DNA of 64,000 nucleotides. Source: Litorimonas sp. WD9-15 (lineage in GTDB: Bacteria; Pseudomonadota; Alphaproteobacteria; Caulobacterales; Maricaulaceae). Location of the stretch: contig NZ_CP189850.1 in NCBI RefSeq assembly GCF_050271975.1, positions 2,282,551-2,346,550 of the forward strand, read 5' to 3'. A program made the translations under genes and the position numbers. Position 1 is the stretch's first letter. Each line of letters opens with the position of its first letter. This document shows, in pieces, positions 42,481 through 59,321 of the stretch. The notes under the pieces were generated by a model. That model was given only the letters and a program-made list of their open reading frames with translations. It ran no database searches and was not told the DNA's origin.

Positions 42481-43290
42481 TTAACCCGCTGGGTCGCTCA
42501 TCGCTTCCATATTGGCATCGGCTTGTTTGATTGCCGCTTCCAGGCGTTCTTCAGCCGTTTGTAGGTTCTTCTTCGGATCCTGATAAAAGGCCGTGAGCTT
42601 CATAATGTTGAGAAACGTCTTGTTCAGCACGCGACCGCCTAGCTTCATTGGACGGTCGAAATCGAATAAGAGAATGACGCGCTCTTCGTCGGTGTCGTTC
42701 CAGACCTCGTGCTCATAGGTGTCGTCAAACACAAAAATCTCCCCCTCTTTCCACGGCGTGATCGTATCATCGACGCGAATGCGACACTGCTCACGATCCT
42801 TTGGGATGATGAGCCCGAGATGGGAGCGCAGAATACCCTTGGTCACACCTTTATGGGCGGGAATATGATATCCGGGCGCGAGGATAGAGAACATGGCCGT
42901 CTGAAGATTCGGCACTTTTTCGAGAATATCAGAGGTTTTCGGCGCTAGTGCCGCATTTTTCTCCAACCGTTGACCAAATCCGAACAGCACGAATGTTTTC
43001 CAGTTATTCTCTGTTGAGAGACGGTACTGGTCCGGCGAGACTTCGTGAAATGTCGGAATGGCATCGCGGAATTTCAGGACCTCACGCGCTTCCACCTGAA
43101 TGGTTTCCCAATTCTCAGTGAAATCCTTCAGGAATGGGAAGTGATCATTCGCGATCTTGGGCGTGTCGGGCACTTTAGATTGTCCACTTTGAAACTTCGC
43201 AATTTTGCGCACGAGTTTCTTGCCATTCCGTTTGACGAAAGCCCGGCGTGGGTTGGTCAGATGTTTGGGTTTCTCAACAGGTGTAGCCAT
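42481..43290 (-). CDS. aspartyl/asparaginyl beta-hydroxylase family 2-oxoglutarate/Fe(II) oxygenase (LpxO-like)
   Basis: Start at MATPVEKPK; C-terminal HKGVTKGILRSHLGLIIP...FDDTYEHEVWN 2-His-1-carboxylate pattern. Confidence 0.7.
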   Translation of the reverse strand: MATPVEKPKHLTNPRRAFVKRNGKKLVRKIAKFQSGQSKVPDTPKIANDHFPFLKDFTENWETIQVEAREVLKFRDAIPTFHEVSPDQYRLSTENNWKTFVLFGFGQRLEKNAALAPKTSDILEKVPNLQTAMFSILAPGYHIPAHKGVTKGILRSHLGLIIPKDREQCRIRVDDTITPWKEGEIFVFDDTYEHEVWNDTDEERVILLFDFDRPMKLGGRVLNKTFLNIMKLTAFYQDPKKNLQTAEERLEAAIKQADANMEAMSDPAG

Positions 43291-43301
43291 AATTTGGCGC
43301 T

Positions 43302-44522
43302 TTACCCCTGCGCGCGTTCTTCGTCCACCATGTAATCCCGCGTGACGGGCAGCGCATGCACATCCTTTGTCAGCTGGATTTGGAAATTCATATGTTTGCC
43401 GAGTTGGAATGAGAGCTCCGAGATGGAGAGGTAAAATTCCCACATGCGGAAGAATTCTTCCCCCATCATCTCAACGATTTCGGCCTTTTGCGCCTGACAG
43501 CGCTTATTCCACTCAGCCAGCGTGTAGGCGTAATGAAGGCGCAGGATTTCACAATCCGAGACCCAGAGTCCCGCCTTCTCAATTTCAGCAAATGTTTCGG
43601 ATAAGGCAGGAGAATATCCACCCGGGAAAATATATTTTCGGATCCACGCACCGGTCGTGCCGGGACCACCCTTCCGGCCAATCGAATGCACAAGAGCGAC
43701 GCCCTCATCCGTTAGCAATTCACGTATCGTCTCAAAATATTCGGCAAAATGCCCGATCCCAACATGTTCGAACATTCCGACAGACACGATGCGGTCAAAA
43801 GGGCCTTCAACATCGCGGTAATCCTGCAATCGGATATCGACGAGATCTTCGAGGCCAGCGTCTTTCACCCGCTCTATTGCGAGGCTGTGCTGTTGAGTCG
43901 ACAGTGTAACGCCCACGACTTTGACGCCGTGTTCTTTCGCAAGATGCATTGCCATGCCGCCCCAGCCACACCCGATATCCAATACGCGCTGCCCGGCTTT
44001 CAGGTCCAATTTCGCCGCGATATGGCGCTTCTTGGCGAGTTGCGCCTCTTCCAGTGTCATGTCTGGGTCAGAGAAATAGGCGCAGCTATATTGCATGTCC
44101 TCGTCGAGGAACATTTTATACAGCTCGTTCGAAATATCGTAATGCGCCTTGACATTGGCCGAGCTGGCCGCGCGCGGATTGCGTTGATGCCAGCGTTTGA
44201 TTTTCTTATTCCACGCTTTGACTTTCGACCGAATAGGCCCTTTGCGGAGGCCGTCACGATTATTTGCGAAGACAGTCAGGAAATCATGGATCGTACAGTC
44301 GACCATTTCCAAACGGCCATCCATATAGGCTTCGCCCGCCACAAGTTCTGGGTTCTTCACTAACGCCATTGGAAGCGCAGTATCATTGATTTTGATTGTG
44401 GCCGATGGCTCTCCGCCTGACCCATAGGTGGTGGACGTGCCGTCAGGCAATATAACGGTCAATGCACCCTTCGATACGAAGCGCTGCATGACTTTATCTA
44501 ATAGAGTAGTACCGAGTCCCAT
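43302..44522 (-). CDS. cfa: cyclopropane-fatty-acyl-phospholipid synthase
   Basis: 406 aa; SAM motif VLDIGCGWGGMAMHLA and CFA family pattern ...VSVGMFEHVG. Confidence 0.9.
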   Translation of the reverse strand: MGLGTTLLDKVMQRFVSKGALTVILPDGTSTTYGSGGEPSATIKINDTALPMALVKNPELVAGEAYMDGRLEMVDCTIHDFLTVFANNRDGLRKGPIRSKVKAWNKKIKRWHQRNPRAASSANVKAHYDISNELYKMFLDEDMQYSCAYFSDPDMTLEEAQLAKKRHIAAKLDLKAGQRVLDIGCGWGGMAMHLAKEHGVKVVGVTLSTQQHSLAIERVKDAGLEDLVDIRLQDYRDVEGPFDRIVSVGMFEHVGIGHFAEYFETIRELLTDEGVALVHSIGRKGGPGTTGAWIRKYIFPGGYSPALSETFAEIEKAGLWVSDCEILRLHYAYTLAEWNKRCQAQKAEIVEMMGEEFFRMWEFYLSISELSFQLGKHMNFQIQLTKDVHALPVTRDYMVDEERAQG

Positions 44523-44564: not shown

Positions 44565-45320
44565 TTAGATAACAGCGAAGCGTTGACGCGCCATTTCGGA
44601 ATTTCCAAACAGCGAACGGCAGATTTCGTAATCTTCCGGCGTATCCAATTCGGACCAATCGGCACCTTTAATGTTGATTGTATCGATACGTTGTCCGGCC
44701 TGTGCCAGTCCGTGGATCGCAGACAAGAACCAGCTTTTCGTGCCGTCACGTGTCTTCATCAGGCGTTTGAGCTCATTGCGGAATGTCTTGGTACCCTCAC
44801 CCATAAAGCGAAGCATGCCGATGGATTCGCCGTCAGTTTCGGTCAATGGTAACGTCTTACCAATCGCCGTCAGACGCGGCCCATCGAGCGTGACCTTCAT
44901 GTCGTCGCCGTCATAATAACCCTTCTGGTCAATCGTGACGGCAATATGTGTTTTCGGTGCCGCAAGAATCGTTTGGAGCAATTCCGGTGAGAACAGCGTA
45001 TCGCCGTTAATGAGAAGGAAATCTTTCTTCATCGACTTTCGTGCCATCCAGCAAGAAGCCAGATTATCTGCAACTTGGAAGAAAGGGTTATAAAGCGTTT
45101 TGACCTTCGGCCCGGATTCACGCGCATCAATTTCGGCTTTGACCATGTGGCTATTAAAGCCCGTAATGACGGTCGCTGTTTTGACCCCATGTGCGAAAAG
45201 TGTGTCCAATTGCATACCCAAAACGGTCGTATTCCCGATGGGGAGAAGACATTTCGGCAAATTTGTTGTCAGCGGCAGGAGGCGTGATCCGCGGCCTGCG
45301 GCGAGAATAATAGCGTGCAT
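44565..45320 (-). CDS. small sugar/alcohol-phosphate nucleotidyltransferase (NTP_transferase family; LicC/IPCT-like)
   Basis: 251 aa; MHAIILAAGRGSRLLPLT...PKCLLPI signature G-rich loop of nucleotidyltransferases. Confidence 0.7.
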   Translation of the reverse strand: MHAIILAAGRGSRLLPLTTNLPKCLLPIGNTTVLGMQLDTLFAHGVKTATVITGFNSHMVKAEIDARESGPKVKTLYNPFFQVADNLASCWMARKSMKKDFLLINGDTLFSPELLQTILAAPKTHIAVTIDQKGYYDGDDMKVTLDGPRLTAIGKTLPLTETDGESIGMLRFMGEGTKTFRNELKRLMKTRDGTKSWFLSAIHGLAQAGQRIDTINIKGADWSELDTPEDYEICRSLFGNSEMARQRFAVI

Positions 45321-45349: not shown

Positions 45350-46021
45350 CTACTTAGACCAATCAACGGTTTCAAAACCATGAATGGCCGCCTCGCGAGT
45401 GAGTTTCGCATCAGCATTAACGGCCACGCCTTTGTCCGCAAATTTTAAAACGGGCAAGTCGGAATAACTGTCTGAGTACATAGTGATATGCGCTGCCTCA
45501 CGTTGGAAATCATCAAATGTTTCCAAACGTTTCGCCAGCATGTCCAATTTTCCGGGGCCATAGCAATTCTCGGAGCCAAAATAACGGGCGCATTTCCCGT
45601 CTTTCCACGCGAGTTTTGTACAGATCACCTCGTCAATGCCCAAGCGTTTGGCGATGGCTTCAACAACAATATCGGCTCCGGCGGAAGCTATGATAATTTT
45701 ATCCCCGGCTGCACGATGAATATCAAGCTGTCGGACAGCCCCGGGGCGGAGGCCATTTGCAATTTCGTTATCTGCAAACTTGTCGGCTAAAGCCTCCAAA
45801 ACGTCACGGCTTTGCCCAGACAGACTCCACCGTAACATACCCCGTTTGACGGAAATGCGCTCCGTTGAACCGACCTTGTAAATCAACTGTCCAAATCCGG
45901 CTCGCGCCCATAATCCAACTAGTTTCCAAGGCATTCCTTTGACAGAAAGCGAGACATACCGCCCCCACGTCCCACGGGTCGTGATCGTCTCATCCAGATC
46001 AAAAATCGCGTAACACTTCAC
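45350..46021 (-). CDS. HAD-IB subfamily phosphatase
   Basis: 223 aa; motif I FDLDETI; abuts upstream gene (46021/46022). Confidence 0.7.
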   Translation of the reverse strand: MKCYAIFDLDETITTRGTWGRYVSLSVKGMPWKLVGLWARAGFGQLIYKVGSTERISVKRGMLRWSLSGQSRDVLEALADKFADNEIANGLRPGAVRQLDIHRAAGDKIIIASAGADIVVEAIAKRLGIDEVICTKLAWKDGKCARYFGSENCYGPGKLDMLAKRLETFDDFQREAAHITMYSDSYSDLPVLKFADKGVAVNADAKLTREAAIHGFETVDWSK

Positions 46022-48529
46022 CTACGCGTCCATCCAGCTCGCGAGGGGGCGTTTGGCGAGAAGGCCCGCGATCAATGTACAGAAATTGGCGAAAATACAG
46101 ATCCAAGTCCACGCCGCAATCAGGAGGAACGCCCAATAACCTGCACCCGCAAAGACCACTGTAAGCATTATCCCGATCATCATAATGAACGTATTCGGGT
46201 TTCTTCGTGCGATGAAGAACCGAAGACCGGAATTAAAACGCGTCCAGACGTGAATATGAAATCCGTGCTGGCGCATAAAGATACCTTCAATCACGCGGTC
46301 CACGACATAGCCCACCCAAATCGCAAGCAGCGCGATAAAGAGCGGGTCGGACATTTGATACGTTCCGCCCAAACCGATCATCCACGCCCAGTACCAGAAG
46401 GGTGGATGGACGAGATCAATCCCGTGGTCATAAATATTGCCCCAATAGGAATAGGTCATGGTCGTCCGCGCCAGCTTCCCATCAACCGTGTCCAAGAAGG
46501 TCATCGTCCAGCCACACAGGAAACCCAGCGCCCAGAATTCATTCCAGAAGAACCATGTCGCCGCCAGCATCAGGAAGAAACCAACAGTCGTCACCTGATT
46601 GGGAGAAAGGCGCAGCCAAGCGCAGAACCGCGTGACATAAAAAGCCGGAACCGGCCAAAACCACTTCGTCACGAAATCGGTAATGCCTTTGTAAGAGGAC
46701 TTAAACTGACGCCGCATAATATCGAGGATAGGTGTCTCGTTCGTATCCAACACATAGGGCGCCTCCTGCTTGCGCAGGGATTTGATATAACCGTCATTCA
46801 CGTCGGAGGGGGCCGCGACAACGAAGTCTTCCCCTGCAAGTGCGTCAACCGTATTGCCGATGAAGCGCTCTGCCTCTGCCTGCGTAGCTGTAGAGAGACT
46901 GACGATCACACCGTTCTCTACGAGGGCCGTTCGTTCCGTCTTCGCAAAAGACTTGGACAGTTCTGCGGACATAATCCAGTCGACATGGTGCCAAATGCCT
47001 TGATCATTCACCTCAAGTGGAAGCGTGACATCCGCACCCGCTTTCTTGAACGCCCTGACCTGCCATTCCTTCAGGGGCAACCCCCAAATCTTGGCATCGG
47101 TTTCACCGATCAGGCCGAATCCCGGCGCTGTATTTTCCATTGCTGTTTCCGCTCCATGTGTTCGGGCTACGACTTTATCTAAAGCTTGTTTGGCAAGGAA
47201 GAGCAGAAGCCCGACCGCCACAAGATTTCCGGCAATCGCCGCCCATCCCGGTGCCATATGACCGATTGTAAAACTCAGGATGAAAAACGAAACAATATAA
47301 ACGAAAACCCCTGCCCCGCGCGCGTAAATCGCGCGTTCGGGATGATCCGTTGCATAAAGGACCGGGTAGAGAGGCGCCGCCATACCTAAGAGAGCTGCCG
47401 CAGGAACCAGTAAACTCGCAAGCGGCGCAGACTCGATATAATCCTGTGGTAGGAAAGACCCCAATAAACCACCCAAGAAGAGCCATATGAACAGGGAAAC
47501 TGTGAGGCCGAAAACCAGTAATATAACGGCTGTTTTAATGACCAGCCGCCAAATCTTGGCCGCCTCTCCCATCGTGACCATTTTCGCCAATTCCGGATAA
47601 ATAACTTGATCGAGGAGCTTAAACCCTTCGGAAAGAAGCTTCGCAATCTCTTCTGCAATGCGGTAAATCGAAACCCAACCCGCCCCGAACACTGCCATAA
47701 CAAGCAGCACTGGAAGGTGAACATTTGAAGCGGCGAGTGTCGAGTCGATATTTGCCTTAATCACGAAGGGCCAAACGCCCTTGCGCGGATTCAGAATATT
47801 CGATTTCGCCCTTAGAACAGGTTTCAACAATCGCCGTTTCCGCAGCTCAATCGCGGCGAGAAGTGGCATCGTCAGATAATCTGCCAGTGAGCCGATGAAC
47901 CAAGCAAGTAAGAAACCTTCCAGGCCCGCGCCTAATTGCGCAGCAATAACGACGCCGACAAAGCGAACCGCCGGCATAATAACGCCGTGCCACGCCAGAA
48001 CGTCAAAACGGTCAAAAAGACGGAAGACACCTATCGATGTGCCGCGATGGCGCAGGAGTAGCAGTAAGGAGTAGAAAATAACAAGTGTCTGCAATGTGCG
48101 AATATCAACAGACTGCCCGTCACGCTGGAACAGAGCTGGGAAACTTTCCGCAATGAAAACAACAAGCCAGAAACAGCAGACAGCCCCGATAAAGGCGACG
48201 ATCGCCGACAATATATCAAGCTTATAACCAAATTGCAGAAGCCGCGCGAGGCCCGTCGCATCATCATTTTTGACATCATCCATGCCAAACCGAATGATCG
48301 TTTGCCATGCCTGAAACGTCGCGAGTTGTGCGAAGAAAAGGTGATAGGCGTGAATAAAAAGGATAACACCCAAGGCCGCCACACTGAGGAATTTTGCCGC
48401 AATCAAAAGACTGCCAAGACCCAATAAGACTGACAGCACTTTTGAACCGACCATCAGCCCCGTATTGGCGGCGATACGCTTGCCGACGGAGTCAGTTGAA
48501 GCAACGGTCAGATTAGGCGATGTCATCAC
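46022..48529 (-). CDS. fusion protein: N-terminal MprF-type flippase-like polytopic domain + central soluble domain + C-terminal CDP-alcohol phosphotransferase domain
   Basis: 835 aa; ~8 TM helices in first 330 aa; C-terminal DTVDGKLARTTMTYSYWGNIYDHGID = D-G-x2-A-R-x8-G-x3-D-x3-D motif at approx 46400-46495; start overlaps upstream stop (ATGA). Confidence 0.75.
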   Translation of the reverse strand: MMTSPNLTVASTDSVGKRIAANTGLMVGSKVLSVLLGLGSLLIAAKFLSVAALGVILFIHAYHLFFAQLATFQAWQTIIRFGMDDVKNDDATGLARLLQFGYKLDILSAIVAFIGAVCCFWLVVFIAESFPALFQRDGQSVDIRTLQTLVIFYSLLLLLRHRGTSIGVFRLFDRFDVLAWHGVIMPAVRFVGVVIAAQLGAGLEGFLLAWFIGSLADYLTMPLLAAIELRKRRLLKPVLRAKSNILNPRKGVWPFVIKANIDSTLAASNVHLPVLLVMAVFGAGWVSIYRIAEEIAKLLSEGFKLLDQVIYPELAKMVTMGEAAKIWRLVIKTAVILLVFGLTVSLFIWLFLGGLLGSFLPQDYIESAPLASLLVPAAALLGMAAPLYPVLYATDHPERAIYARGAGVFVYIVSFFILSFTIGHMAPGWAAIAGNLVAVGLLLFLAKQALDKVVARTHGAETAMENTAPGFGLIGETDAKIWGLPLKEWQVRAFKKAGADVTLPLEVNDQGIWHHVDWIMSAELSKSFAKTERTALVENGVIVSLSTATQAEAERFIGNTVDALAGEDFVVAAPSDVNDGYIKSLRKQEAPYVLDTNETPILDIMRRQFKSSYKGITDFVTKWFWPVPAFYVTRFCAWLRLSPNQVTTVGFFLMLAATWFFWNEFWALGFLCGWTMTFLDTVDGKLARTTMTYSYWGNIYDHGIDLVHPPFWYWAWMIGLGGTYQMSDPLFIALLAIWVGYVVDRVIEGIFMRQHGFHIHVWTRFNSGLRFFIARRNPNTFIMMIGIMLTVVFAGAGYWAFLLIAAWTWICIFANFCTLIAGLLAKRPLASWMDA

Positions 48530-49263
48530 TGACGGTCTGCCAAAATCTGCTCAACCAGTTCGAGGTCGGACGGTTTATCAACGTCAATCGCAGCTTCGGC
48601 AAATGGGATCAGAACTGGGGCCGCCGTAATGCCGATGCGGCCTGCGGCATATTCAAAGGCGCCGCCCAAAGACAACCGCCCCGCCGCGAATTTGATCCCG
48701 ATACCGACCCCGACTTTTTTGGCCAATTTGAGCGGGTTTTTGCGCAAATGCTGAACCGACTGCCAGAATGCGATGGCTTTTAGGCCGTCCTCATTCGCAA
48801 TATAAAAGAGGTTGCACCCCGATACGGCGTAGTCAGAAAAGCGGAGATAGGTCCGTTTCGTCGTTGGATATTCAGCTTGAATAACCTCTTCTGTCGCGAG
48901 ACCAACACAAATATCTGTCCCTTCGGCCACGGCTCCGGAAACAAACGCTTCAACCATTTCGGGTGCCAGAAGCGCATGATCACAAGTCGTCACAAGGCAG
49001 GGATAGGTATCAATGTCTTCTAACCCCAAAAGGACACTATCCGCAGGTCCCTCGCCGCTGGGCACTTCTGTCAAGTCACTGCCCGAATAGCCGGAGATAT
49101 GAGGTGTCGGCATATTTGCGTCGGACAGCGCCGTACGAACACGGTCCAACATAGAAATGCCCGCCACAGAAATTTCCGCCTTGTGCGATACGCCCTTCGC
49201 CTCACAAAGCGGATCTACCACGCCTGCACGCTGCCCTGCCAAAATGAGAACGCTTGCGACCAT
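48526..49263 (-). CDS. MobA/CofC-like (NTP_transf_3) nucleotidyltransferase
   Basis: Start set at MVASVLILAGQRAG (glycine-rich NT loop); 245 aa; overlaps neighbours at both ends. Confidence 0.55.
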   Translation of the reverse strand: MVASVLILAGQRAGVVDPLCEAKGVSHKAEISVAGISMLDRVRTALSDANMPTPHISGYSGSDLTEVPSGEGPADSVLLGLEDIDTYPCLVTTCDHALLAPEMVEAFVSGAVAEGTDICVGLATEEVIQAEYPTTKRTYLRFSDYAVSGCNLFYIANEDGLKAIAFWQSVQHLRKNPLKLAKKVGVGIGIKFAAGRLSLGGAFEYAAGRIGITAAPVLIPFAEAAIDVDKPSDLELVEQILADRQ

Positions 49264-49264
49264 G

Positions 49265-50419
49265 TCAGCCGATCCGTTTTTCATACATGCGGTAAGTTTT
49301 ATAAGGCACGGCGCTGGCTTGCTCACAAATTGAAATCATGCCGTCATTATCCTCGAGAATCCAAGACAGCTCGCAATAGGTATAGCCCTTTTGGCGCGCG
49401 GCTTCGAACACAGTTTCGCACAGAGCTGCAACAAGTCCGAGCCCCTTGCGCGTGCCGTGATGTTTTGTACGGAGTCCCATCAGCGGCACCCGCGCCTGTT
49501 TCGCCTTCCCAGACTTTAGACGGTAAATAAGCTTGGCCCAATTGAACGGGAAGAGTTTCCCATCAAAGCCCTTTGCCAATTCGTTCAAGTCCGGAATCAG
49601 GCAGATAAAAGCGGCGGGCTCCCCGTCAATCTCGCCTATATAAAAACAATCCGAAGCAATGAGCGGTTTCATCTCTTTGGCGAGGTGCTGGATAGCGTCA
49701 TCCGGGAATTCTAGGAATCCCCAATTATTGCCCCACGCATCGTTGAAGATGCTCATGGCCAATTCGATATCGCGCGTGAAATTCTTTGGATCGAGTTTCC
49801 GCCAGCTTACGGCTTTGGACTTGGTCGCATAATCAACCATCATGCGTGTCACTTTCGGGCGCGGATATCCGGCGTGTAAATCCGCTTGAAAGGCGTACAT
49901 ATCAATCGCTTTGGCATAACCAGCCGTCTCGACCATGTCTTGATAATAGGGTTTGCCATATGACATCAGGACGACATTGGGACTATCAAACCCTTCAACA
50001 AGGAGGCCGACCTCCTCATTCACGCCCCATTGCGCAGGGCCGACCAATCGCTTTCGGCCTTTGTCTTTGGCCCATTCATCGGCCCTATTGAGGAGCATTT
50101 TGCCGAGTTCCGGATCATTTTCGCAATCAAAATAGCCAAAAAAGGCTGTTTCAACATCGTGCTGTCGATCATGGGCGGGATTTGTAAAAACCGCAATCCG
50201 GCCAATAATCGCGTCTCCTCTAACCGCTAGAAATAACGAGCGGTCCAAGTCTTTCGCAGCTGGATTCTTTACAGGGTCTAGCTGCTCTTTGCGCTCCAAC
50301 CTTAATGGCGGCGCCCAACTCGGATCCCCCCGATAAAGATCATAGGGCAAGTCTAGGAATTGCTGGACCTGCGCCTTTGTTTGAACGGAGACGATTTTGA
50401 TGTCGGCATTGGTCGGCAA
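49265..50419 (-). CDS. GNAT-fold N-acyltransferase, two-lobed ~384 aa (candidate lipid N-acyltransferase)
   Basis: Length and paired GNAT-like halves; first gene of the coupled operon. Confidence 0.55.
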   Translation of the reverse strand: MPTNADIKIVSVQTKAQVQQFLDLPYDLYRGDPSWAPPLRLERKEQLDPVKNPAAKDLDRSLFLAVRGDAIIGRIAVFTNPAHDRQHDVETAFFGYFDCENDPELGKMLLNRADEWAKDKGRKRLVGPAQWGVNEEVGLLVEGFDSPNVVLMSYGKPYYQDMVETAGYAKAIDMYAFQADLHAGYPRPKVTRMMVDYATKSKAVSWRKLDPKNFTRDIELAMSIFNDAWGNNWGFLEFPDDAIQHLAKEMKPLIASDCFYIGEIDGEPAAFICLIPDLNELAKGFDGKLFPFNWAKLIYRLKSGKAKQARVPLMGLRTKHHGTRKGLGLVAALCETVFEAARQKGYTYCELSWILEDNDGMISICEQASAVPYKTYRMYEKRIG

Positions 50420-50466: not shown

Positions 50467-51015
50467 TCAGGAAAGGTCAACCAGATGGATGTCGATGTCG
50501 ACGCCCTCCATCGGGACGTCAAATCCTGTCTCAGAGAATTTTGGAAGCCTTAGGGATTTGATTTCAGGGTTGTTTGACAAACCATAAGGCTCTTTGGGCT
50601 TAAAATTCCAAGCCTTTTTCAACCGGCGATCTCCGTCCTTATCGTGATAGCCGACGAGTGCATACTCGCCGGGCAGAGGCAGATTGATACAGACTTTGAC
50701 GGAACCGTCCTCTGCTGGAACACGAATACGGCGAAGTTTTCCTTTTTTCTTGAGAAAATCGCGCTCGCCAAACAGTTCTACCTTCACCATTCCAACTTTG
50801 GAGACATTGTGAATGGTGGCCCGAATCTGCAGAGCGCCCGGCACGCACGTGTCGGCTTTGTCTCGAGGATAGAGTTCTAAGCCGCGCTCCACACCTATTT
50901 CAGATAAGGTTTCTCGGAACTCATCATTGTCATCAGACCCATTATCCTGCGCGACCGCAAAACCGGCCGAGCCCATCATGCTCAAGATGACGAAAGCTTT
51001 AGACAGTTTTCTCAT
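50467..51015 (-). CDS. DUF2141-family secreted protein
   Basis: Start at MRKLSKAFVILSMMGSAGFAVAQ signal peptide; YALVGYHDKDGDRRL...PKEPYGLSNNPE matches DUF2141 core. Confidence 0.6.
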   Translation of the reverse strand: MRKLSKAFVILSMMGSAGFAVAQDNGSDDNDEFRETLSEIGVERGLELYPRDKADTCVPGALQIRATIHNVSKVGMVKVELFGERDFLKKKGKLRRIRVPAEDGSVKVCINLPLPGEYALVGYHDKDGDRRLKKAWNFKPKEPYGLSNNPEIKSLRLPKFSETGFDVPMEGVDIDIHLVDLS

Positions 51016-51133
51016 GTAGGCATTTGATTTCACGACGGTGTTTCCTTAAGCCTCACTGAACCCAAAAAAGGTCCTTAACAGCCATATGGGAAACGATTCC
51101 TCTGTCGTAAAGGCGTAATCACAGACCTGTCAT

Positions 51134-52369
51134 ATGGGCCGATTGAACCGATATATCCTGAAAAAAGCCTCGACAAGTGTCGGTGGGCTGGTCGTTTTCG
51201 CCTGTTGCGTTCTGCTAATGGAACGCCTGTTACGTATTTTCGAAATTGTTACAAATTCGACAAATCCTGCTTCTGACGCGACAAATATGATCGTGAACCT
51301 CCTGCCCTATTATCTCGGCATGGCGGTTCCGATGGCGTTGCTACTTGGCACAATCATCACGGTGGACCGCTTGTCAAAGTCGTCTGAATTGACCGCGGCT
51401 CTTGGTGCAGGCGTATCTCTTTTCCATATGACAAAGCCGTTCTTATGGCTCGCAATTTTCCTTGCAGGCCTGACCATGTTTATCGAAGGCTATATGCAGC
51501 CTGTTGGACGGTATAATTATCGCCAGGTTCTTCACGTCGTGAAACAGCAGAGTTTTACGGCGGCCTTACGAGAAGGCACGTTTACGGAAGTCTTAGACCG
51601 TACTTTTTTTGCGGGCACAGATTCGCCTGATGGCTCCATCGGACCAATCTTCATTTACGAAATGGTGGATGATGTGAACGCGAACGGAGAGCCCGTCAAA
51701 GGCTATCGCATTACAACGGCGGGCAAAGGCGAAATTACAATTCGCGATAAAGTCGATAATGCAAAAACAGGCGCACCCGTTTTGAACCTTGCAGAAGGGC
51801 GCGGTTTTCAAGTTTTGAATAGCACACTTTCGGGACAACTTGAATTCGGCGAGTTGACTGTTGCGGGCGCGACGAGTGAGACGGAATATCGCGTACGCGG
51901 TGATGATGAGCGGGAAATGACATCACTGGAGCTCTTTGCGAACCGTAAAGGTTCTGCTACCTCAAATATTGATCAAAACACAAATAACGCAGCGCTTCAC
52001 CTTCGCGTTTCCAAAGCCGTCCTTCTGATTTTACTTCCCTTCATCGCCGTGCCCTTCGGCCTGAACTACGGCCGAAACCCCTCCTCTGCCGGAATTTTTG
52101 TTGGCGTGGTCTTTCTGGTCTCACTTCAAAAAGCACTGGAATTTGGACAGTCATTGGGGGCGGCTGGAAAAATCCCGCCTTGGCTCGGCATTTGGGGGAT
52201 TATTGGTGTCGTCGCGATCTTCGCCTTCTTCCTGTTTTGGAAAAGCGCCTATAAAATGGGTCAGCCGCCTCTCACCTCATTCTCGCATTGGGTGGGACAC
52301 ATCAAAGGCGAGCTGCTTGGTGCGCTTAAGAAACTGACCCGCGACCGAAGGATCCCACAGGATGTATAG
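51134..52369 (+). CDS. lptF: LPS export ABC transporter permease LptF (YjgP/YjgQ family)
   Basis: 411 aa; MGRLNRYILKK... six TM with large periplasmic beta-jellyroll insert. Confidence 0.85.
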   Translation: MGRLNRYILKKASTSVGGLVVFACCVLLMERLLRIFEIVTNSTNPASDATNMIVNLLPYYLGMAVPMALLLGTIITVDRLSKSSELTAALGAGVSLFHMTKPFLWLAIFLAGLTMFIEGYMQPVGRYNYRQVLHVVKQQSFTAALREGTFTEVLDRTFFAGTDSPDGSIGPIFIYEMVDDVNANGEPVKGYRITTAGKGEITIRDKVDNAKTGAPVLNLAEGRGFQVLNSTLSGQLEFGELTVAGATSETEYRVRGDDEREMTSLELFANRKGSATSNIDQNTNNAALHLRVSKAVLLILLPFIAVPFGLNYGRNPSSAGIFVGVVFLVSLQKALEFGQSLGAAGKIPPWLGIWGIIGVVAIFAFFLFWKSAYKMGQPPLTSFSHWVGHIKGELLGALKKLTRDRRIPQDV

Positions 52370-53441
52370 GTTTGGCCTCTACATATCGAAGACTTTTCTC
52401 TTCACATGGCTGACCGTCGTCTTTGGGTTTCTAACATTGATCGGCCTGCTCGACAGTCTCGCGAATGGCGGAGATATTGTCGCCGATGGCAGTGGTTTTG
52501 CAGGAACGTTCAAATATATGTTTCTGCGCGCCCCTGTGATTTTTGACCGTATCTTTGTCTTCACCCTCGTCGTCGCAATCCTATTGACCTTCGTTAAACT
52601 CATCCGGCAACATGAGTTGGTTGCCCTGCTTGGCTTTGGCATATCCGCCACAAAGCAAGTCTGGCTGATGACGCCCGCCGTTGTCGGTGCGGCTATCATG
52701 TCGGTCATCTTTATCGACCTCGCCATGGCCCCCGCCGTTCGTTCATTACAAGCTTGGGGGATTGGCGAATATAAGGTGAAAAATATAACGGCGGAAAACC
52801 CGCTCTGGCTGGAAGATCGTGGTCGTATCGTGCGGGCCACAGACCGCCTTGGTTATAATAGTCTTGGTAATCTCAAGTTCTTCTTCCGAAGCGAAACCGG
52901 AGAAGTCGAACGCATTTGGCATGCCGAAAAGGCGGATTATCAAGACCCCAACTGGCTGTTGACTAATGTCGAGCAACTGGATGTCAAAGACGCGGACGGG
53001 GAGTCGCGAGAGCTTCGACCCGTCGCAGGAACGCGGGTTTGGGAAACGCGACAAACACCCACATCAATCGCCCGCCTCGCCGCAGAGCCGCGGGACCTCT
53101 CATTGTCCGAAATGCGGAATTTCTCCAAACGCGGCAATAGCGGGTCAAAACCAAGCTTTGCTTATAAATTCTGGCACGCACACCGTCTCACACGTCCCCT
53201 CGCCGCTTTCATATTGCTCATTGCCTGTGCTGCTCTCATGCAGCGGACAGGCCGTGAAGATACGGGCGACAAGACACTCATCATCGGCATTACGATGGGT
53301 TTTGTATTCCTCATCATTGACGGCGCGATGGCGACCTTTGCGGCGTCGGGCGGGATGGGTGTCCTACCCGCGATTGCGATACCACTGCTTCTCTTTGGAG
53401 TTACGGGCGCATATCTTCTGTTGAAAACAGAAAGTCTGTAA
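52362..53441 (+). CDS. lptG: LPS export ABC transporter permease LptG
   Basis: 359 aa; MYRFGLYISKTF...; 8-nt overlap with lptF. Confidence 0.85.
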   Translation: MYRFGLYISKTFLFTWLTVVFGFLTLIGLLDSLANGGDIVADGSGFAGTFKYMFLRAPVIFDRIFVFTLVVAILLTFVKLIRQHELVALLGFGISATKQVWLMTPAVVGAAIMSVIFIDLAMAPAVRSLQAWGIGEYKVKNITAENPLWLEDRGRIVRATDRLGYNSLGNLKFFFRSETGEVERIWHAEKADYQDPNWLLTNVEQLDVKDADGESRELRPVAGTRVWETRQTPTSIARLAAEPRDLSLSEMRNFSKRGNSGSKPSFAYKFWHAHRLTRPLAAFILLIACAALMQRTGREDTGDKTLIIGITMGFVFLIIDGAMATFAASGGMGVLPAIAIPLLLFGVTGAYLLLKTESL

Positions 53442-53449
53442 ACTTCGCT

Positions 53450-54349
53450 ATGAGACGGCTCTTCATAGTCAATTCTTTGTCAGAGCGCGTCGCACGTAAG
53501 GGCTCCGTTCTGCATGAACTCTACGGCGATACAGACGATATTTTTTATCTGGATCCTTTCGACTACCTCCCATCCACTGTTGAGAGAGCAGCGATAGACA
53601 AGGTCGAACATGTCATCATTGAAGGCGGAGACGGGACTGTTCAGGGCGTCATATCCGAATTTCTCCGACAAGAAGACAGGTTCGCAAATTTTCCAAAATT
53701 CTCCATCATCCCGGGTGGCATGACAAACCAGGTTGCCAAGAATATAGGTTTTGCGTCGGCGAGCCCACATAGAGTTAAAACAAAACTCGCGTCAGAACTC
53801 TCACCAACTAACAACCCACTTCTCATCGCGTCTGAACTGGACGGCCCTGATTATTCCGGTTTTCTCTTCTCGACTGGCGCGATTCCGCAGATCACACGCT
53901 ATACGACCGGCCAATTGCACCGCAAAGGGATTGGCGGATCATTGGCCGTGTTTGGCGGTATTCTCAAAGGTATTCGTGGCGACGACGCGACGCTGATGCA
54001 ACTGACGTCTGTTCATCTTGATGATCTCTATGAAGGTGAACATCTGGGCACAGTTATCACGACCCTTCCCGGTCTCATCTTGGGTCTCGACCCGTTTTGG
54101 GGAGAAGAAGAGGCTCCGCTTCGCCTGACTTGGGTGACGTCAGGTTATAAAAAACTGGGCCGCAATATTCTTGGCTTATGGCTGGGTCGCAAATCAGTTG
54201 ATCGCCGCAAAGACGGCATCTTCTCAGTCTGTCGTAACGAAATTAATTACAGCTATTCCGGCCCCGTCGTGTTGGACGGCGAATTTCTTTCATTCCCGTC
54301 AGGCAAATTTACTGTCCGCGCCAGCCGTCCTGTGACATTCCTACGATAG
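53450..54349 (+). CDS. diacylglycerol-kinase catalytic-domain (DAGK_cat/YegS/LCB5) lipid kinase; candidate ceramide/sphingoid kinase
   Basis: 299 aa; IIEGGDGTV (GGDGT ATP-site motif), IPGGMTNQ. Confidence 0.75.
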   Translation: MRRLFIVNSLSERVARKGSVLHELYGDTDDIFYLDPFDYLPSTVERAAIDKVEHVIIEGGDGTVQGVISEFLRQEDRFANFPKFSIIPGGMTNQVAKNIGFASASPHRVKTKLASELSPTNNPLLIASELDGPDYSGFLFSTGAIPQITRYTTGQLHRKGIGGSLAVFGGILKGIRGDDATLMQLTSVHLDDLYEGEHLGTVITTLPGLILGLDPFWGEEEAPLRLTWVTSGYKKLGRNILGLWLGRKSVDRRKDGIFSVCRNEINYSYSGPVVLDGEFLSFPSGKFTVRASRPVTFLR

Positions 54350-55270
54350 ATGAGCACGGTTCTGGATATCATAAAGGGTGAAACACTCGACCCGCCGGCG
54401 CGCGTCACTGCTGTTATGGACGCGATTCGCGCCCGTCACACCGATCGTGTTCAGGCCATGGTGTATTATGGCAGCTCATTACGAGAGCTGGATAACTCGG
54501 AAAAAATGCTCGATTTCTATGTGCTAGTAGATAGCTACCGTAAAACCCATGGTACCGGACCACGCGCCCTCATAAATCGCCTCATACCTCCCGCCGTTTA
54601 TTACCTCGAAAGAGAGAATGAGGACGGCACGCTAAGCACATGCAAATATTCAATTTTAAGCCTGTCGGAATTTGAAAGGCGCTGTAGTTCCAAGGCCTTC
54701 CTCTCACAGGTATGGGGACGCTTTTCGCAACCCTGCGCAGTCCTCTGGTCTAAGGAAGAGACCGTCTTGGATCGTGTCTGGGCGGGACGCGTTAAAGCTG
54801 TTGAAACGATGGCAGCGGAAACAGCGCCACTTCTCGAAGGACGCGCAACTGCCGCAGTATTTTGGGGGCGCGGATTTTACGAGAGCTACCAAACTGAGCT
54901 TCGCCCCGAAAGCTCTACCGGACGCGCAGAGGAAATCGTCGCCCGATTTGCGGAACGCTATGAAGCGATCACGACAGCTCTTTACGGCGCACCGGATGAA
55001 AACGGTAATTATGAAATTCCGCAGAAACCTATCGGAAAAGCCAAGCGCAGATGGTTCTTGCGACGTCTCTTAGGCAAGCCTGCCGCCGCGATCCGCGTGC
55101 TGCTCGGAGCAGCGACATTTGATGGTGGGATTGATTATGTCGCCCGAAAGGTAGAGAATCACTCCGGAGTCAAATTGGACCCCACACCTGCGCAACGTCG
55201 TCATCCGGTGCTACATTCACCGTTTTTGTTCTGGAAACTATGGCGAAAAGGCGCTTTTCGGGCAAATTAG
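54350..55270 (+). CDS. Tam41/Mmp37-like nucleotidyltransferase-fold protein (mitochondrial-type CDP-diacylglycerol synthase homologue)
   Basis: 306 aa; MVYYGSSLRELDNSEKMLDFYVLVDSY...YYLE pattern resembling Tam41 family; abuts kinase gene (54349/54350). Confidence 0.5.
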   Translation: MSTVLDIIKGETLDPPARVTAVMDAIRARHTDRVQAMVYYGSSLRELDNSEKMLDFYVLVDSYRKTHGTGPRALINRLIPPAVYYLERENEDGTLSTCKYSILSLSEFERRCSSKAFLSQVWGRFSQPCAVLWSKEETVLDRVWAGRVKAVETMAAETAPLLEGRATAAVFWGRGFYESYQTELRPESSTGRAEEIVARFAERYEAITTALYGAPDENGNYEIPQKPIGKAKRRWFLRRLLGKPAAAIRVLLGAATFDGGIDYVARKVENHSGVKLDPTPAQRRHPVLHSPFLFWKLWRKGAFRAN

Positions 55271-55567: not shown

Positions 55568-56800
55568 CTATTCCGCGGCCTGCATCCGGATCATCATACC
55601 GGACATAATTTCGGCCTGACTGGCCTTCATTCGCCCAAATGCATCAATGATAATATTCACATCGCTTTCCGTATGCGCCGCAGAGAGTGAGATACGGAGC
55701 AAAGACGAGCTCTGCGGTGTTCCGGGTGGAACAGCGAGGTTCACGTAAACGCCGTTTTCCATCAGCCAATTCCATTCCATCGCTGCAATGCCTTCATTAG
55801 GACGACGCACAGCGATGACGGGACTCGGGTCAGCGCAGAGGTCGAAATCCAAAGCCTTCAACCCGGCATGAAGCTGTTGCGCCCGCGCTTTCAAATTCTC
55901 GCGCAAGTACCCACCCGTCTTGACCTTCTCAACGGCGACACGCGCCGCGCAAATATTGGCGGGCGTGGCAGACGCCGTAAACATATAGGGGCGCATAACT
56001 TTGCGTGTAATTTCAAATTGAGGATGTTTGGACGCACAAAATCCACCGACAGAAGCAAGGGATTTTGAGAATGTGCCCGATATAAAGTCAACCTGATCCA
56101 AAACGCCCTGCTCTTCCGCAATGCCGCAGCCAGTGGGGCCGAACACACCGTAGGAATGCGCTTCATCGATAAAGAGATAGCCGCCATGACGGTGCGTCAC
56201 ATCGAGAAATTCATCCACGGGCGCAATATCACCGAACATGGAATACATACCTTCAATCACAACAAGGGCATTGCCGCCCTCAATCTCACCTTGTCGGCGG
56301 AGACGTTTATCCAGATCTTCCGGGTTATTATGGCGGAAACGAATGGTCGACGCATTGGTCAGGCGCGATCCATCAATGATACAGGCATGCGCATCTGCAT
56401 CCATAAAGATGACATCTTTATCACCGGCCAGCCCCGAAATCGCGGCAAGGTTCGTCTGATAGCCCGTCGTAAACACGATACAGGACGGCATTCCGAAATG
56501 TTCTGCCAAGGCCTGTTCCAAATCTGTGTGTTCTGCATATGTTCCGTTTGCAACGCGGGATCCCGTCGTACCCGTACCGTGATCATCAACAGCAGTTTTC
56601 GCGGCGGCGCGACAATCCTCATCGAATGTCAGGCCGAGATAGTTATTCGTACCAGCCAGAAGAATTTCGCGGTTACCGATACGCCCGCGGGTCGCGGACA
56701 AAATATCATCGAATTTCACGCCCAGCGCATCGGCGCCGATCTTCATCATCATATCAACGCGCGTTTGAAGCGGTGCGTATTTGTCAAACAAAGCCGTCAT
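55568..56800 (-). CDS. spt: serine palmitoyltransferase (alpha-oxoamine synthase family, PLP)
   Basis: 410 aa; long colinear matches to Sphingomonas SPT (ILLAGTNNYLGLTFDED, IRFRHNNPEDLDKRL, VIEGMYSMFGDIAP, DEAHS..GTFSKS PLP-Lys, YVNLAVPPGTP). Confidence 0.85.
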   Translation of the reverse strand: MTALFDKYAPLQTRVDMMMKIGADALGVKFDDILSATRGRIGNREILLAGTNNYLGLTFDEDCRAAAKTAVDDHGTGTTGSRVANGTYAEHTDLEQALAEHFGMPSCIVFTTGYQTNLAAISGLAGDKDVIFMDADAHACIIDGSRLTNASTIRFRHNNPEDLDKRLRRQGEIEGGNALVVIEGMYSMFGDIAPVDEFLDVTHRHGGYLFIDEAHSYGVFGPTGCGIAEEQGVLDQVDFISGTFSKSLASVGGFCASKHPQFEITRKVMRPYMFTASATPANICAARVAVEKVKTGGYLRENLKARAQQLHAGLKALDFDLCADPSPVIAVRRPNEGIAAMEWNWLMENGVYVNLAVPPGTPQSSSLLRISLSAAHTESDVNIIIDAFGRMKASQAEIMSGMMIRMQAAE

Positions 56801-57048
56801 CAGGACATCAATCCTTTTGCGGCCAGTGAAAGTTCGCCAACGGTTTTAATGTCGGACACCATCTCCATCGGAATTGAGATATCGTAATGATCTTCCAACT
56901 CCATAATAAAATCGAAAACGGCCACCGAATCGACCTCCAGATCCGACATAATGCCAGAAGACCGCTCAATCGGCAGGCCCTTGGGATTATACGGCTTCAA
57001 AAGCTCACAAATCTTATCGTAAATCTCTGACTCAGTGGGGGCGGTCAT
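56800..57048 (-). CDS. dedicated acyl carrier protein
   Basis: 82 aa; DLEVDSVAVFDFIMELE with phosphopantetheinylated Ser context; stop overlaps spt start. Confidence 0.8.
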   Translation of the reverse strand: MTAPTESEIYDKICELLKPYNPKGLPIERSSGIMSDLEVDSVAVFDFIMELEDHYDISIPMEMVSDIKTVGELSLAAKGLMS

Positions 57049-57119: not shown

Positions 57120-58910
57120 CTATTTTGACGCGCTATCTGCAACAACTCTTAAAGTTTCATCCGATTGCAAGTCGATGATCGCGCCTTCGAGGAACTTTGC
57201 CTTCACACGGGCACGGGAAAGCTTGCCGGAGCTGGTGATAATCATCGTTGATTTTGGCACCAACATCAGGCGGACGGGCACACCAACCTCCAGGCGAATC
57301 GCCGCCGTGACAGCCGTATAAATTTCTTCCAATAGCTTCGGGTTACGCGTTCGACATTCAAGCAATAGCATAATGTCTTTTTCATCACCCGCACCCCCAA
57401 TGGCAAACGCACAGGCCCGACCACACCGATGTGGCGCGGCAGCTTGTGCGGCCCATTCAATATCCTGTGGCCAAATATTCCGGCCATGCCAGAGAATCAG
57501 GTCCTTAAAACGTCCTGTGACAACCAATTGGCCTTCATGCCAATATCCGGCATCGCCTGTGTCCAACCACCCGTCTTTTGAGAAAGAAGCTTCCGTCGCC
57601 TGCGTATTTCGGAAATAGCCGGGAGACACGGACGGTCCACGGAGACAAACACGGCCAACTTGCTTTTCAGACAAAACGTTATCGTCAAAATCACGAATTT
57701 CGATTTCATGATCCGGTAGGACATGTCCGCAAGCCACAAAAGACCGTCGGCTTTCCTCGCGCGTGACCTCAGACGCTTCAACAGCCTCAGACGTACGCGC
57801 GTAGCGCTCCATATCGATTGTGTGTGTCTTTAGCCCCTGCCCCAATGGCGCAAAAGTTGCGGCCAATGTTGTTTCTGCCAAACCGTATGACGGTGTAAAA
57901 ACGCCCTGCCCAAAACCCATATCTGCGAATAGGTTTTGAAAATCTGTCAGAGGTTCAGGACGCACCATATCACCGCCAATCCCGGCCACACGCCAACTCG
58001 ACAAATCAAGCTCACGATCTTCACGCCAACGCCGCACGCAGAGTTCGTAGCCAAATGTGGGTGAGTAAGAGAGCGTGCCCTTATGATCAGAGATCAATTG
58101 CAGCCATGTAATAGGCCGGCGCGTAAAGTCCTGTGGATCAATGTAATCAACGGACATTTGTGCCGTCATCGGCGCGATCAAAAACCCGATCAAACCCATA
58201 TCATGATAGAGCGGGAGCCAAGAGGTCCCCCGGTCTGTCTCGGTCATTTTCATACCGTGTTTCGTAATCGCCAAGCAATTGGCACAGACGGATTTCTGCG
58301 TTCCAATAATACCCTTTGGCGAAGAAGAGGAACCAGAAGAATATTGAATATAACAGAGATCATCCTTACCAAATGGTCGCAAAACATCTCCCTTTGGCAA
58401 ATTCCCAACAGCCTCAAATGTCATCACTGGAATCGCCTGATCATTTAAGGCCGAACGCATAATGCCGTCCATTGATTCCGGGCATAAAAGTGCGTGAAAA
58501 TCACCCGTATCAGCCATCCGTTGCAATTGCCGTTCATACGAACTCCGCCCGCCCAGCGTAACAGGCAGCGGTACAGGGGCAGCGACAAGACCTGCATATT
58601 GGCAGGCGAAAAACATAACCGCGAATTCGGGAGTCGAAACGGCCGCAATTCCAATACGTGAATTTTTCTTGGCGAATGGAACAAGGCGCTTTGCCATCTC
58701 AATAGCTTGGCTATGAAGATCAGCATAAGAAAGCGCCGCCTTTGGACGTGCTTTACCATCGAAATATGACAGTCCCGTCTTTGCTGTTGCGGCATAGTCG
58801 AGTGCATCACACAGGGTTTCAAAATCGCCATGTCGAATGGGGACACCCCGTTCAGTCGGCAGAACCTGGATGGTTTCGGCTTCAGTCATACTCATATCTC
58901 GCTCAGTCAC
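57120..58910 (-). CDS. acyl-ACP synthetase / fatty-acyl-AMP ligase (ANL adenylating superfamily)
   Basis: 596 aa; AMP-binding motif YIQYSSGSSSSPKGI; directly upstream of ACP-spt. Confidence 0.8.
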   Translation of the reverse strand: MTERDMSMTEAETIQVLPTERGVPIRHGDFETLCDALDYAATAKTGLSYFDGKARPKAALSYADLHSQAIEMAKRLVPFAKKNSRIGIAAVSTPEFAVMFFACQYAGLVAAPVPLPVTLGGRSSYERQLQRMADTGDFHALLCPESMDGIMRSALNDQAIPVMTFEAVGNLPKGDVLRPFGKDDLCYIQYSSGSSSSPKGIIGTQKSVCANCLAITKHGMKMTETDRGTSWLPLYHDMGLIGFLIAPMTAQMSVDYIDPQDFTRRPITWLQLISDHKGTLSYSPTFGYELCVRRWREDRELDLSSWRVAGIGGDMVRPEPLTDFQNLFADMGFGQGVFTPSYGLAETTLAATFAPLGQGLKTHTIDMERYARTSEAVEASEVTREESRRSFVACGHVLPDHEIEIRDFDDNVLSEKQVGRVCLRGPSVSPGYFRNTQATEASFSKDGWLDTGDAGYWHEGQLVVTGRFKDLILWHGRNIWPQDIEWAAQAAAPHRCGRACAFAIGGAGDEKDIMLLLECRTRNPKLLEEIYTAVTAAIRLEVGVPVRLMLVPKSTMIITSSGKLSRARVKAKFLEGAIIDLQSDETLRVVADSASK

Positions 58911-59246: not shown

Positions 59247-59321
59247 TGGTGGGCGATACTGGGATTGAACCAGTGACCCCTGCCGTGTGAAGGCAGTGCT
59301 CTCCCGCTGAGCTAATCGCCC
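59247..59321 (-). tRNA. tRNA-Val (anticodon CAC)
   Basis: Reverse complement GGGCGATTAGCTCAGCGGGAGAGCACTGCCTTCACACGGCAGGGGTCACTGGTTCAATCCCAGTATCGCCCACCA folds as canonical cloverleaf, CCA encoded. Confidence 0.85.

Follow-up and report, generated by a model that had tools for sequence, protein, structure and literature searches.

The 64,000-nucleotide (nt) stretch of the Litorimonas sp. WD9-15 genome analysed here (hereafter the window; GC content 0.52, with an unremarkable base composition) contains, at positions 53450 to 55270, two abutting genes which encode a kinase with a diacylglycerol kinase (DAGK) catalytic fold and a protein of 306 amino acids (aa) resembling Tam41. They follow two permease genes of the LptF_LptG family, face the serine palmitoyltransferase gene spt, and lie within a larger group of sphingolipid genes (Table 1). 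This pair very likely represents cpgB and cpgC of the ceramide phosphoglycerate/diphosphoglycerate (CPG/CPG2) locus, with CpgC as the proposed Tam41-fold enzyme acting on ceramide-1-phosphate (C1P). Litorimonas has been placed in the Maricaulales, family Robiginitomaculaceae, and the window genes have their closest relatives in Litorimonas and Algimonas, with which they share about 80% of their amino acids.

The kinase gene and its Tam41-like partner

The two open reading frames (ORFs), one of them a GGDGT kinase, had been predicted to abut at 54349/54350, in exact agreement with the ORF table: the TAG stop codon of the kinase (54347-54349) is directly followed by the ATG of the 306-aa ORF (…CGA TAG ATG AGC…), with zero spacing. 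Their predicted position directly downstream of lptG was also confirmed, an ORF of the LptF_LptG family stopping 8 nt before the kinase ATG. This ORF itself overlaps the preceding one by 8 nt, giving junction spacings of -8, +8 and 0 nt along lptF2-lptG2-cpgB-cpgC. Because these genes overlap or abut, a single four-gene transcript is very probable, by which the synthesis of the headgroup would be tied to sphingolipid export through LptF2G2. In the window, promoter- and terminator-like sites did not exceed shuffled-sequence frequency and none was located at a gene junction, while an Rfam scan returned four tRNAs only, with no match in the 297-nt spacer between cpgC and spt. The original prediction described the pair as upstream of, and divergent from, spt; this had to be corrected, since spt is read from the minus strand and ends at 55568, across from the end of cpgC at 55270, and the genes thus converge tail-to-tail, 297 nt apart.

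The kinase ORF contains IIEGGDGTVQGV, in which GGDGT, the ATP motif, occupies residues 59-63, and Pfam DAGK_cat matches residues 39-106 (E 3.7e-10). The NCBIfam models of YegS, DgkB and BmrU gave 15-34 bits against cutoffs of 118-387, and matches to YegS and DgkB among Protein Data Bank (PDB) sequences reached E 0.07-0.7 at best; because of these low scores and weak matches, the kinase is classed by its sequence as a diverged member of the DAGK superfamily, and not as YegS. It possesses one Cys only, which rules out the CxxxCxxC motif known from ceramide kinases of eukaryotes, and no hydrophobic segment of transmembrane (TM) grade was predicted (maximum 19-residue hydropathy, 1.27). Over residues 7-278, it aligned with a 308-aa DAGK_cat protein of the Pseudomonas luteola locus (L081:9066-9992, FOB45_16335; 28% identity, E 3e-24), which is the published P. 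luteola orthologue of CC_1160/CpgB. Caulobacter CpgB (CCNA_01218/CC_1160) is a biochemically proven ceramide kinase, which in vitro phosphorylated diacylglycerol (DAG) about as well as ceramide; CpgB forms a clade apart from YegS in published phylogeny, and cpgB is accompanied by genes for Spt, bCerS and CerR in nearly all genera that carry it. Ceramide phosphorylation, shown biochemically for this Caulobacter orthologue, is thus suggested for the window kinase by homology and synteny. The earlier suggestion of a ceramide-kinase step, catalysed by an enzyme other than a generic YegS, is in line with the sub-cutoff scores of the YegS models, the full-length homology to a CpgB orthologue and the linkage to sphingolipid genes. 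A generic YegS reading of the kinase was rejected on the grounds of synteny, score thresholds and published genetics.

The 306-aa protein, whose residues 37-63 are MVYYGSSLRELDNSEKMLDFYVLVDSY, had been predicted to be Tam41-like. As a single sequence, it had no match in Pfam (even at E <= 1), NCBIfam or PDB sequences. An exhaustive phmmer search with it retrieved 1034 clusters (50% identity) at E <= 1e-3, including 268 at E <= 1e-30, and the profile of an alignment of 120 family members (29-63% identity to the window protein) was compared with 177,635 PDB sequences, among which Schizosaccharomyces pombe Tam41 (6IG2/6IG4) came first (E 1.6e-5). When the 120 members were scanned one by one against Pfam, PF09139 (Tam41_Mmp37) was the sole recurrent family (29/120, sub-threshold to weak, best E 1.4e-7). 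The Tam41-like call therefore survived the profile search on which it had been staked. An AlphaFold2 model built on the same alignment (predicted local distance difference test, 94.3; predicted template modelling score, 0.91) retrieved Tam41 first in Foldseek (E 6.7e-8), while a search for homologues with an S. pombe Tam41 fragment returned one 92-aa protein only. Because the gathering threshold was not reached, the protein was filed outside PF09139, and is best described, from these profile and model comparisons, as a Tam41 homologue at the superfamily or sister-family level.

The model displays a nucleotidyltransferase (NTase) and winged-helix core (residues ~1-227), as looked for in a Tam41-type fold, followed by a basic amphipathic C-terminal module (~228-306). 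The last 82 residues carry a net charge of +14 and form amphipathic helices rich in Trp and Phe, and no TM segment was predicted in the protein. Tam41 likewise combines an NTase and a winged-helix domain with a tail of ~74 residues that binds the membrane at the C-terminus. Eleven positions (G41, D55, P81, K99, R124, Q127, E183, R185, E187, Y263 and K267) were invariant across the 120 sequences, and most coincide with Tam41 pocket residues. In the hidden Markov model alignment, Y40-G41-S42 and D55-F56 correspond to Y-G-S and D-F of S. pombe Tam41, K99-Y100 to K156-Y157, R124-F125 to R180-F181, Q127 to K183, P128 to P184, and Y180, E183, R185 and E187 to Y, D, R and E (the chain numbering of the S. 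pombe structure is offset by 6 from the native one, as checked by means of the F240A difference between 6IG2 and 6IG4). PMC8935507 reports K109, R133 and K136 of the human protein as CTP-pocket residues and equates human Y110 and P137 with S. pombe Y157 and P184. Of these three pocket residues, K109 and R133 are thus retained in the window family, as K99 and R124, and K136 is replaced by an invariant Gln; no counterparts of T199 and N208 could be assigned. According to PMC11646218, Tam41 retains one of three NTase carboxylates, and the present family is likewise a single-carboxylate one, with D55 followed by F-Y. The C-terminal module was conserved at about twice the density of the core, since 14 of its 79 columns, against 20 of 227 in the core, were at least 90% conserved; it includes the family motif DYxxWKIERHSGV, and its conserved residues comprise W235, Y263, K267, R270, H271 and G273.

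Orthology, linkage and the surrounding sphingolipid locus

The 306-aa protein aligned over residues 4-288 with protein P0299 (29% identity, 53% positives, E 3e-44), which carries accession QEU29244.1 and whose cluster representative, P0267, matched the window protein in phmmer with E 1.6e-38. QEU29244.1 is FOB45_16340, the P. luteola orthologue of CC_1161/CCNA_01219 (S2F Table in PMC11324152), and the kinase gene FOB45_16335 lies directly upstream of it. Between Caulobacter and P. luteola, the two proteins of the pair share 30% and 29% identity (E 9e-32 and 1e-20). Moreover, the gene order of the window, lptF2-lptG2-kinase-Tam41-like gene facing spt-acpR-aasR, is that of HNE_1586-1593 of H. 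neptunium, minus cerR (HNE_1592), and these genes have each been assigned to Caulobacter genes in published work; in the Hyphomonas locus L080, cerR separates acpR from aasR, in agreement with the published order. From such sequence matches and gene order, the two window ORFs very probably encode CpgB and CpgC orthologues, and the match that the original prediction ventured with the ceramide-phosphate branch of Caulobacter was borne out through the P. luteola orthologues and the H. neptunium gene order.

The linkage was further investigated in 80 species-level loci, namely the best 80 of one genome scan with a 13-sequence alignment as the query. These came from Litorimonas, Algimonas, Hellea, Robiginitomaculum, Maricaulaceae, Hyphomonas and Parvularcula, all Maricaulales, Hyphomonadaceae or Parvularcula, and no Caulobacter was among them. 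The kinase gene was directly upstream of the Tam41-like gene in 80/80, and its stop was separated from the next start by -7 to +12 nt, with an ATGA overlap (-4) in 53, these distances being biased towards small values by the use of the nearest in-frame start. Homologues of LptG2 were present in 76/80 loci, of LptF2 in 73, of the DUF2141 protein in 69, of bCerS in 68, of the flippase/CpgA protein in 65, of the CC_1153-like protein in 64 and of the HAD-IB protein in 57, and acpR was kept beside spt in 50. The expected co-occurrence of the pair with spt held in part: 71 loci extended 2 kb or more downstream, and spt was in the flank of 51 of these, always convergent (51/51) and within 600 nt in 42, but was elsewhere in the other 20, mostly Hellea and relatives. 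Wherever the flanks were long enough, the Tam41-like gene was linked to sphingolipid genes. The window arrangement was repeated in L085, which, like L083 and L084, is a more distant metagenomic locus or one from a metagenome-assembled genome. Genes of PF06258 ('mitochondrial fission ELM1'), a second family named 'mitochondrial' in gammaproteobacterial-type loci and not present in the window, were observed near the Tam41-like gene (L081:12687-15104, L084:1-1048 and L084:8974-10137), and Asp_Arg_Hydrox genes flank cpgC in P. luteola and lie near the Tam41-like gene in L083.

Table 1. Genes of the sphingolipid locus in the window, in order of position.
Feature	Positions	Strand	Description and supporting matches
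cpgD-like CTP:phosphoglycerate cytidylyltransferase	44565-45320	-	Pfam NTP_transferase, NTP_transf_3, IspD
HAD-IB family hydrolase	45350-46021	-	TIGR01490 111 bits, cutoff 98; SerB/histidinol-phosphatase-like
Flippase-CpgA fusion	46022-48529	-	835 aa; flippase aa ~17-457, CpgA aa ~473-808
CC_1153-like MobA/CofC-type nucleotidyltransferase	48526-49326	-	Pfam NTP_transf_3
bCerS-like ceramide synthase (GNAT-type N-acyltransferase)	49265-50419	-	Weak Pfam Acetyltransf_1
DUF2141 protein	50467-51033	-	Pfam DUF2141 E 2.8e-21; divergent from lptF2
lptF2-like permease	51134-52369	+	Pfam LptF_LptG E 2.4e-58
lptG2-like permease	52362-53441	+	Pfam LptF_LptG E 8.9e-43
cpgB-like kinase	53450-54349	+	299 aa; DAGK catalytic fold, GGDGT ATP motif
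cpgC-like Tam41-fold protein	54350-55270	+	306 aa
spt, serine palmitoyltransferase	55568-56800	-	NCBIfam NF047599 544 bits, cutoff 500
acpR-like dedicated acyl carrier protein	56800-57048	-	Pfam PP-binding; position of HNE_1591/CC_1163
aasR-like acyl-ACP synthetase (fatty acyl-AMP ligase)	57120-58910	-	NF006624 666 bits, cutoff 600; position of HNE_1593/CC_1165

The two permeases are probably those of the exporter LptF2/LptG2. The lptF2-like gene scored 200 bits with NCBIfam LptF (cutoff 230) and occupies the position of HNE_1586, the CC_1156 orthologue, and its product matched P. luteola LptF2 weakly (E 1e-9); the lptG2-like gene scored 175 bits with NCBIfam LptG (cutoff 240), at the position of HNE_1587, the CC_1155 orthologue. 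As BLASTP against P. luteola LptG2 was not significant (E 0.036), LptG2 is assigned on position and family. In Caulobacter, LptF2, LptG2 and LptB associate in a complex, and the first two are deletable only when spt is absent. The functional link to lipid export put forward in the original prediction stands insofar as the upstream genes are probably sphingolipid-locus LptF2/LptG2 paralogues, but it would concern the export of sphingolipid and not of lipopolysaccharide (LPS).

Beyond the pair, the ceramide-diphosphoglycerate locus is present almost in full in the window, with spt, acpR, aasR, bCerS, cpgA, cpgD, the CC_1153-like gene and lptF2G2. Comparison with P. luteola confirmed the bCerS-like protein (L081:2707-3861, FOB45_16305, the CC_1154 orthologue; 38% identity, E 3e-98), the CC_1153-like one (L081:3923-4675, FOB45_16310; 36%, E 1e-47) and the cpgD-like one (L081:4666-5448, FOB45_16315; 45%, E 1e-77), whose trio of Pfam domains has likewise been reported for CC_1152. 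The CpgA part of the fusion protein, with Pfam CDP-OH_P_transf at aa 642-804, is 38% identical to the P. luteola CpgA orthologue (E 5e-66), while its N-terminal part, a CC_1166-like flippase of the MOP/Polysacc_synt type, aligned with the gene at the flippase position in Hyphomonas (28% identity, E 6e-35) and with a gene with a weak Polysacc_synt match in L083 (26%, E 2e-20). A single alignment crossed the flippase-CpgA junction in 30/80 loci; in the other flippase-bearing loci, the flippase gene was unfused and located beside cpgA (three loci), far from it (L080) or with no cpgA in the flank. This fusion suggests a physical coupling between flipping and the final step of headgroup assembly. 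The HAD-IB protein, whose gene separates cpgD from the flippase-cpgA gene, could be a phosphatase acting on phosphoglycerate or on a phosphoglycerate-bearing lipid. The CC_1158 metallophosphoesterase gene is absent from the window, in which tblastn found neither cerR nor the HIT gene.

Several observations concern the details and borders of the locus. An LptD_N (LptA/LptC-like) gene is located at the position of the DUF2141 gene in L083 (L083:3038-3538), LptC2 having been reported as restricted to Caulobacter. The gap between acpR and aasR, 71 nt in the window, contains an ORF of about 300 aa in relatives such as L015 and L080. At the edge of the locus, 42481-43443 and 43302-44522 (both on the minus strand) encode an OlsC/LpxO-like acyl 2-hydroxylase (below the equivalog cutoff) and a cyclopropane-fatty-acid synthase; they overlap by 142 nt, and one listed start (43302-44522, from the coordinates) is probably too far upstream. 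On the other side, a tRNA (59250-59321, minus strand) lies ~340 nt past the aasR start (58910), and the next gene encodes an unrelated ELFV-family dehydrogenase. Elsewhere in the window, two tandem genes on the minus strand (16508-19249 and 19460-22180) encode proteins of ~910 aa rich in RTX calcium-binding nonapeptide repeats, and an Iso_dh-family dehydrogenase gene (11078-12289, plus strand) adjoins that of a monomeric isocitrate dehydrogenase (12385-14628, minus strand).

Proposed chemistry of CpgC and alternative explanations

In Caulobacter, cpgC (CCNA_01219/CC_1161), located beside spt, is needed for the conversion of C1P to CPG: upon its loss, C1P persists and CPG is gone. CpgD makes cytidine diphosphate (CDP)-glycerate, and both CpgA and CpgD are dispensable for CPG itself but required to add the second phosphoglycerate. 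Homologues of CC_1161 carry InterPro IPR015222 (Tam41/Mmp37), and a ceramide activated with a nucleoside diphosphate (NDP) has been proposed as the intermediate (Olea-Ozuna et al., 2024; PMC11324152), while the CpgD papers of 2025 and 2026 still call the mechanism of CpgC unidentified. From a mechanistic point of view, the soluble DAGK-fold kinase of the window would use ATP to phosphorylate ceramide, supplied by Spt, AcpR, AasR and bCerS, into C1P, on which the 306-aa Tam41-fold protein would act as a peripheral-membrane enzyme. Most likely, to judge by its fold, it would convert C1P and CTP into CDP-ceramide and pyrophosphate, which amounts to the Tam41 reaction on a sphingolipid; glycerate or phosphoglycerate would then displace CMP to give CPG, by means of a following transferase or of the C-terminal module of CpgC itself. 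Finally, CpgD, the CDP-glycerate synthase, and the flippase-fused CpgA would add the second phosphoglycerate. We consider the chances about even that CpgC would be such a CTP:ceramide-1-phosphate cytidylyltransferase making CDP-ceramide; the fold and pocket evidence strengthens the CDP-ceramide hypothesis (PMC11324152) without proving it. The nucleotidyl activation step suggested in the original prediction is likewise a hypothesis, published in 2024.

A number of points weigh against this interpretation. As to identity, the window protein itself is under every Pfam and NCBIfam threshold, and the link to Caulobacter runs through published orthologue tables and not through direct alignment. As to organization, the co-transcription of the four genes is deduced from their spacing, one gene separates the kinase gene from the Tam41-like gene in L084, and L083 has cpgA, and no kinase gene, overlapping the Tam41-like gene, followed by the flippase gene and spt; the adjacency of the kinase gene and cpgC is thus very common and not universal. 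As to chemistry, the CpgC family has an invariant Gln (Q127) in place of the pocket Lys of Tam41 (K136 in human, K183 in S. pombe), and therefore the choice or the pose of the nucleotide may differ. There is no known enzyme for the conversion of CDP-ceramide into CPG, CPG is still made in Caulobacter cpgA mutants and after cpgD loss, and our literature search found no report of CDP-ceramide or of another nucleotide-activated sphingolipid intermediate.

Alternatively, CpgC would complete glycerate addition itself, without the release of free CDP-ceramide, either through an enzyme-bound nucleotidylated intermediate or through a phospho-alcohol transfer of the LicD/fukutin type, with the C-terminal module as the glycerate site. 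LicD and fukutin are phosphotransferases with an NTase fold. The addition of glycerate to C1P by CpgC was indeed proposed by Zik et al.; a transferase dedicated to the first glycerate is not known, cpgA and cpgD mutants keep CPG, and the conservation of the C-terminal module (14/79 columns against 20/227 in the core) exceeds what a membrane anchor requires. However, the reaction of the two Tam41 enzymes with solved structures ends with the CDP-lipid, and the residues shared with Tam41 are those of the CTP pocket; moreover, direct attachment of glycerate was judged energetically unfavourable by Olea-Ozuna et al. We regard self-contained glycerate addition as rather unlikely, but as the main rival of the CDP-ceramide proposal. 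An inert Tam41-fold protein, binding lipid or serving as a scaffold that hands C1P to another enzyme or to LptF2G2, would be consistent with the absence of two of the three canonical NTase carboxylates, with the replacement of the pocket Lys by Gln and with co-encoding with the exporter. Yet active Tam41 enzymes are also single-carboxylate proteins, the eleven positions invariant in 120 sequences are mostly Tam41 pocket residues, and the mutant phenotype is a biosynthetic block, C1P accumulating in the absence of CPG, and not a transport defect, which makes an inert role highly improbable.

Equally improbable is a role of the pair in glycerolipid salvage, in which a YegS/DgkB-like kinase would convert DAG into phosphatidic acid (PA) and a Tam41-type enzyme would then produce CDP-DAG independently of CdsA. 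The in vitro activity of Caulobacter CpgB on DAG, comparable to that on ceramide, speaks in its favour, as do the CDP-DAG synthesis ascribed to a Firmicutes Tam41 homologue in PMC11646218 and the UniRef names 'Phosphatidate cytidylyltransferase' and 'Matrix Mmp37' of some family members. By contrast, the pair is set among sphingolipid genes in all loci with long enough flanks, nearly all cpgB genera encode Spt, bCerS and CerR, and the YegS and DgkB models remain far under their cutoffs. In Caulobacter, PA levels were unchanged by cpgB deletion, and cpgC deletion specifically removed CPG while C1P stayed. The CDP-DAG salvage reading was thus rejected, on synteny, score thresholds and published genetics.

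Significance and comparison with known systems

CPG2 is an anionic outer-membrane sphingolipid which lets Caulobacter survive without lipid A and is the target of colistin there. The window shows this pathway in a compact and nearly complete form in a marine bacterium of the Maricaulales, and the 80 related loci, together with the more than 1000 family clusters, indicate that the cpgB-cpgC unit is widespread. If the CDP-ceramide proposal were true, bacterial phosphosphingolipid headgroups would be built by a logic similar to that of the Kennedy or CDP-DAG pathways, and the C-terminal module would be a catalytic or substrate-selecting element and not a simple membrane anchor. The gene pair itself offers nothing new to specialists: the two genes, the likeness of CpgC to Tam41, the proposal of an NDP-ceramide and the connection with LptF2G2 were all published between 2022 and 2026, and the observation is a rediscovery with minor local variants.

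With Caulobacter CpgB, the window kinase shares a DAGK/LCB5-type domain with the GGDG motif, the lack of CxxxCxxC and of any predicted TM helix, as for a soluble enzyme, and the linkage to sphingolipid genes; it differs in sequence, with 28% identity to the P. luteola orthologue. With YegS, DgkB and BmrU it has in common the DAGK_cat superfamily and the nucleotide-binding GGDG loop, but it scores far under their cutoffs and CpgB forms a separate clade from YegS. The 306-aa protein belongs to the family of Caulobacter CpgC through QEU29244.1 and displays the Tam41/InterPro resemblance noted for CC_1161, with cpgB directly upstream and with spt, acpR, aasR, lptF2G2, bCerS, cpgA and cpgD in the locus, although an identity of only ~30% is expected between the window and Caulobacter proteins. 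The loci themselves differ, since the window has the HAD-IB gene where Caulobacter has the CC_1158 metallophosphoesterase, is devoid of the HIT gene (CC_1157) and cerR (CC_1164), contains cpgA fused to the flippase gene and has the kinase-cpgC pair directly after lptG2. Similarly, the LptF2/LptG2 exporter of Caulobacter (CCNA_01214/01213) resembles the window permeases as an LptF_LptG pair inside a sphingolipid locus, with no lptB alongside and with H. neptunium orthologues at the same position; by contrast, the window pair is apparently co-transcribed with cpgB-cpgC, to judge by gene spacing, and no LptC2 was seen in the window locus, where the DUF2141 gene is the conserved neighbour instead.

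At the level of the enzyme fold, the likeness to Tam41/Mmp37 proteins (6IG2/6IG4; Firmicutes 7ECD; PF09139) comprises YGS…DF with a single carboxylate, the K-Y, R-F-x-x-P and Y-x-x-[DE]-x-R…E motifs, including two reported CTP-pocket residues, and a C-terminal membrane-binding tail of similar length (~75-80 aa). The differences lie in the low identity (15-17%), the window protein being sub-threshold in Pfam, in Gln127 instead of the pocket Lys, in the family-specific conserved DYxxWKIERHSGV of the C-terminus, in the genetic substrate of CpgC, C1P and not PA, and in a sphingolipid rather than a cardiolipin gene context. At the level of the pathway, the proposed sequence of reactions would parallel, by analogy, the CdsA/Tam41, PgsA and Pgp route, in which a lipid phosphate becomes a CDP-lipid, undergoes a headgroup exchange of the CDP-alcohol type and may then be dephosphorylated, and the window does encode a Tam41-like protein, a PgsA-like one (CpgA) and a HAD phosphatase. 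It would differ from this route by its ceramide lipid and its glycerate headgroup, and by the place of CpgA, at the addition of the second, and not the first, phosphoglycerate.

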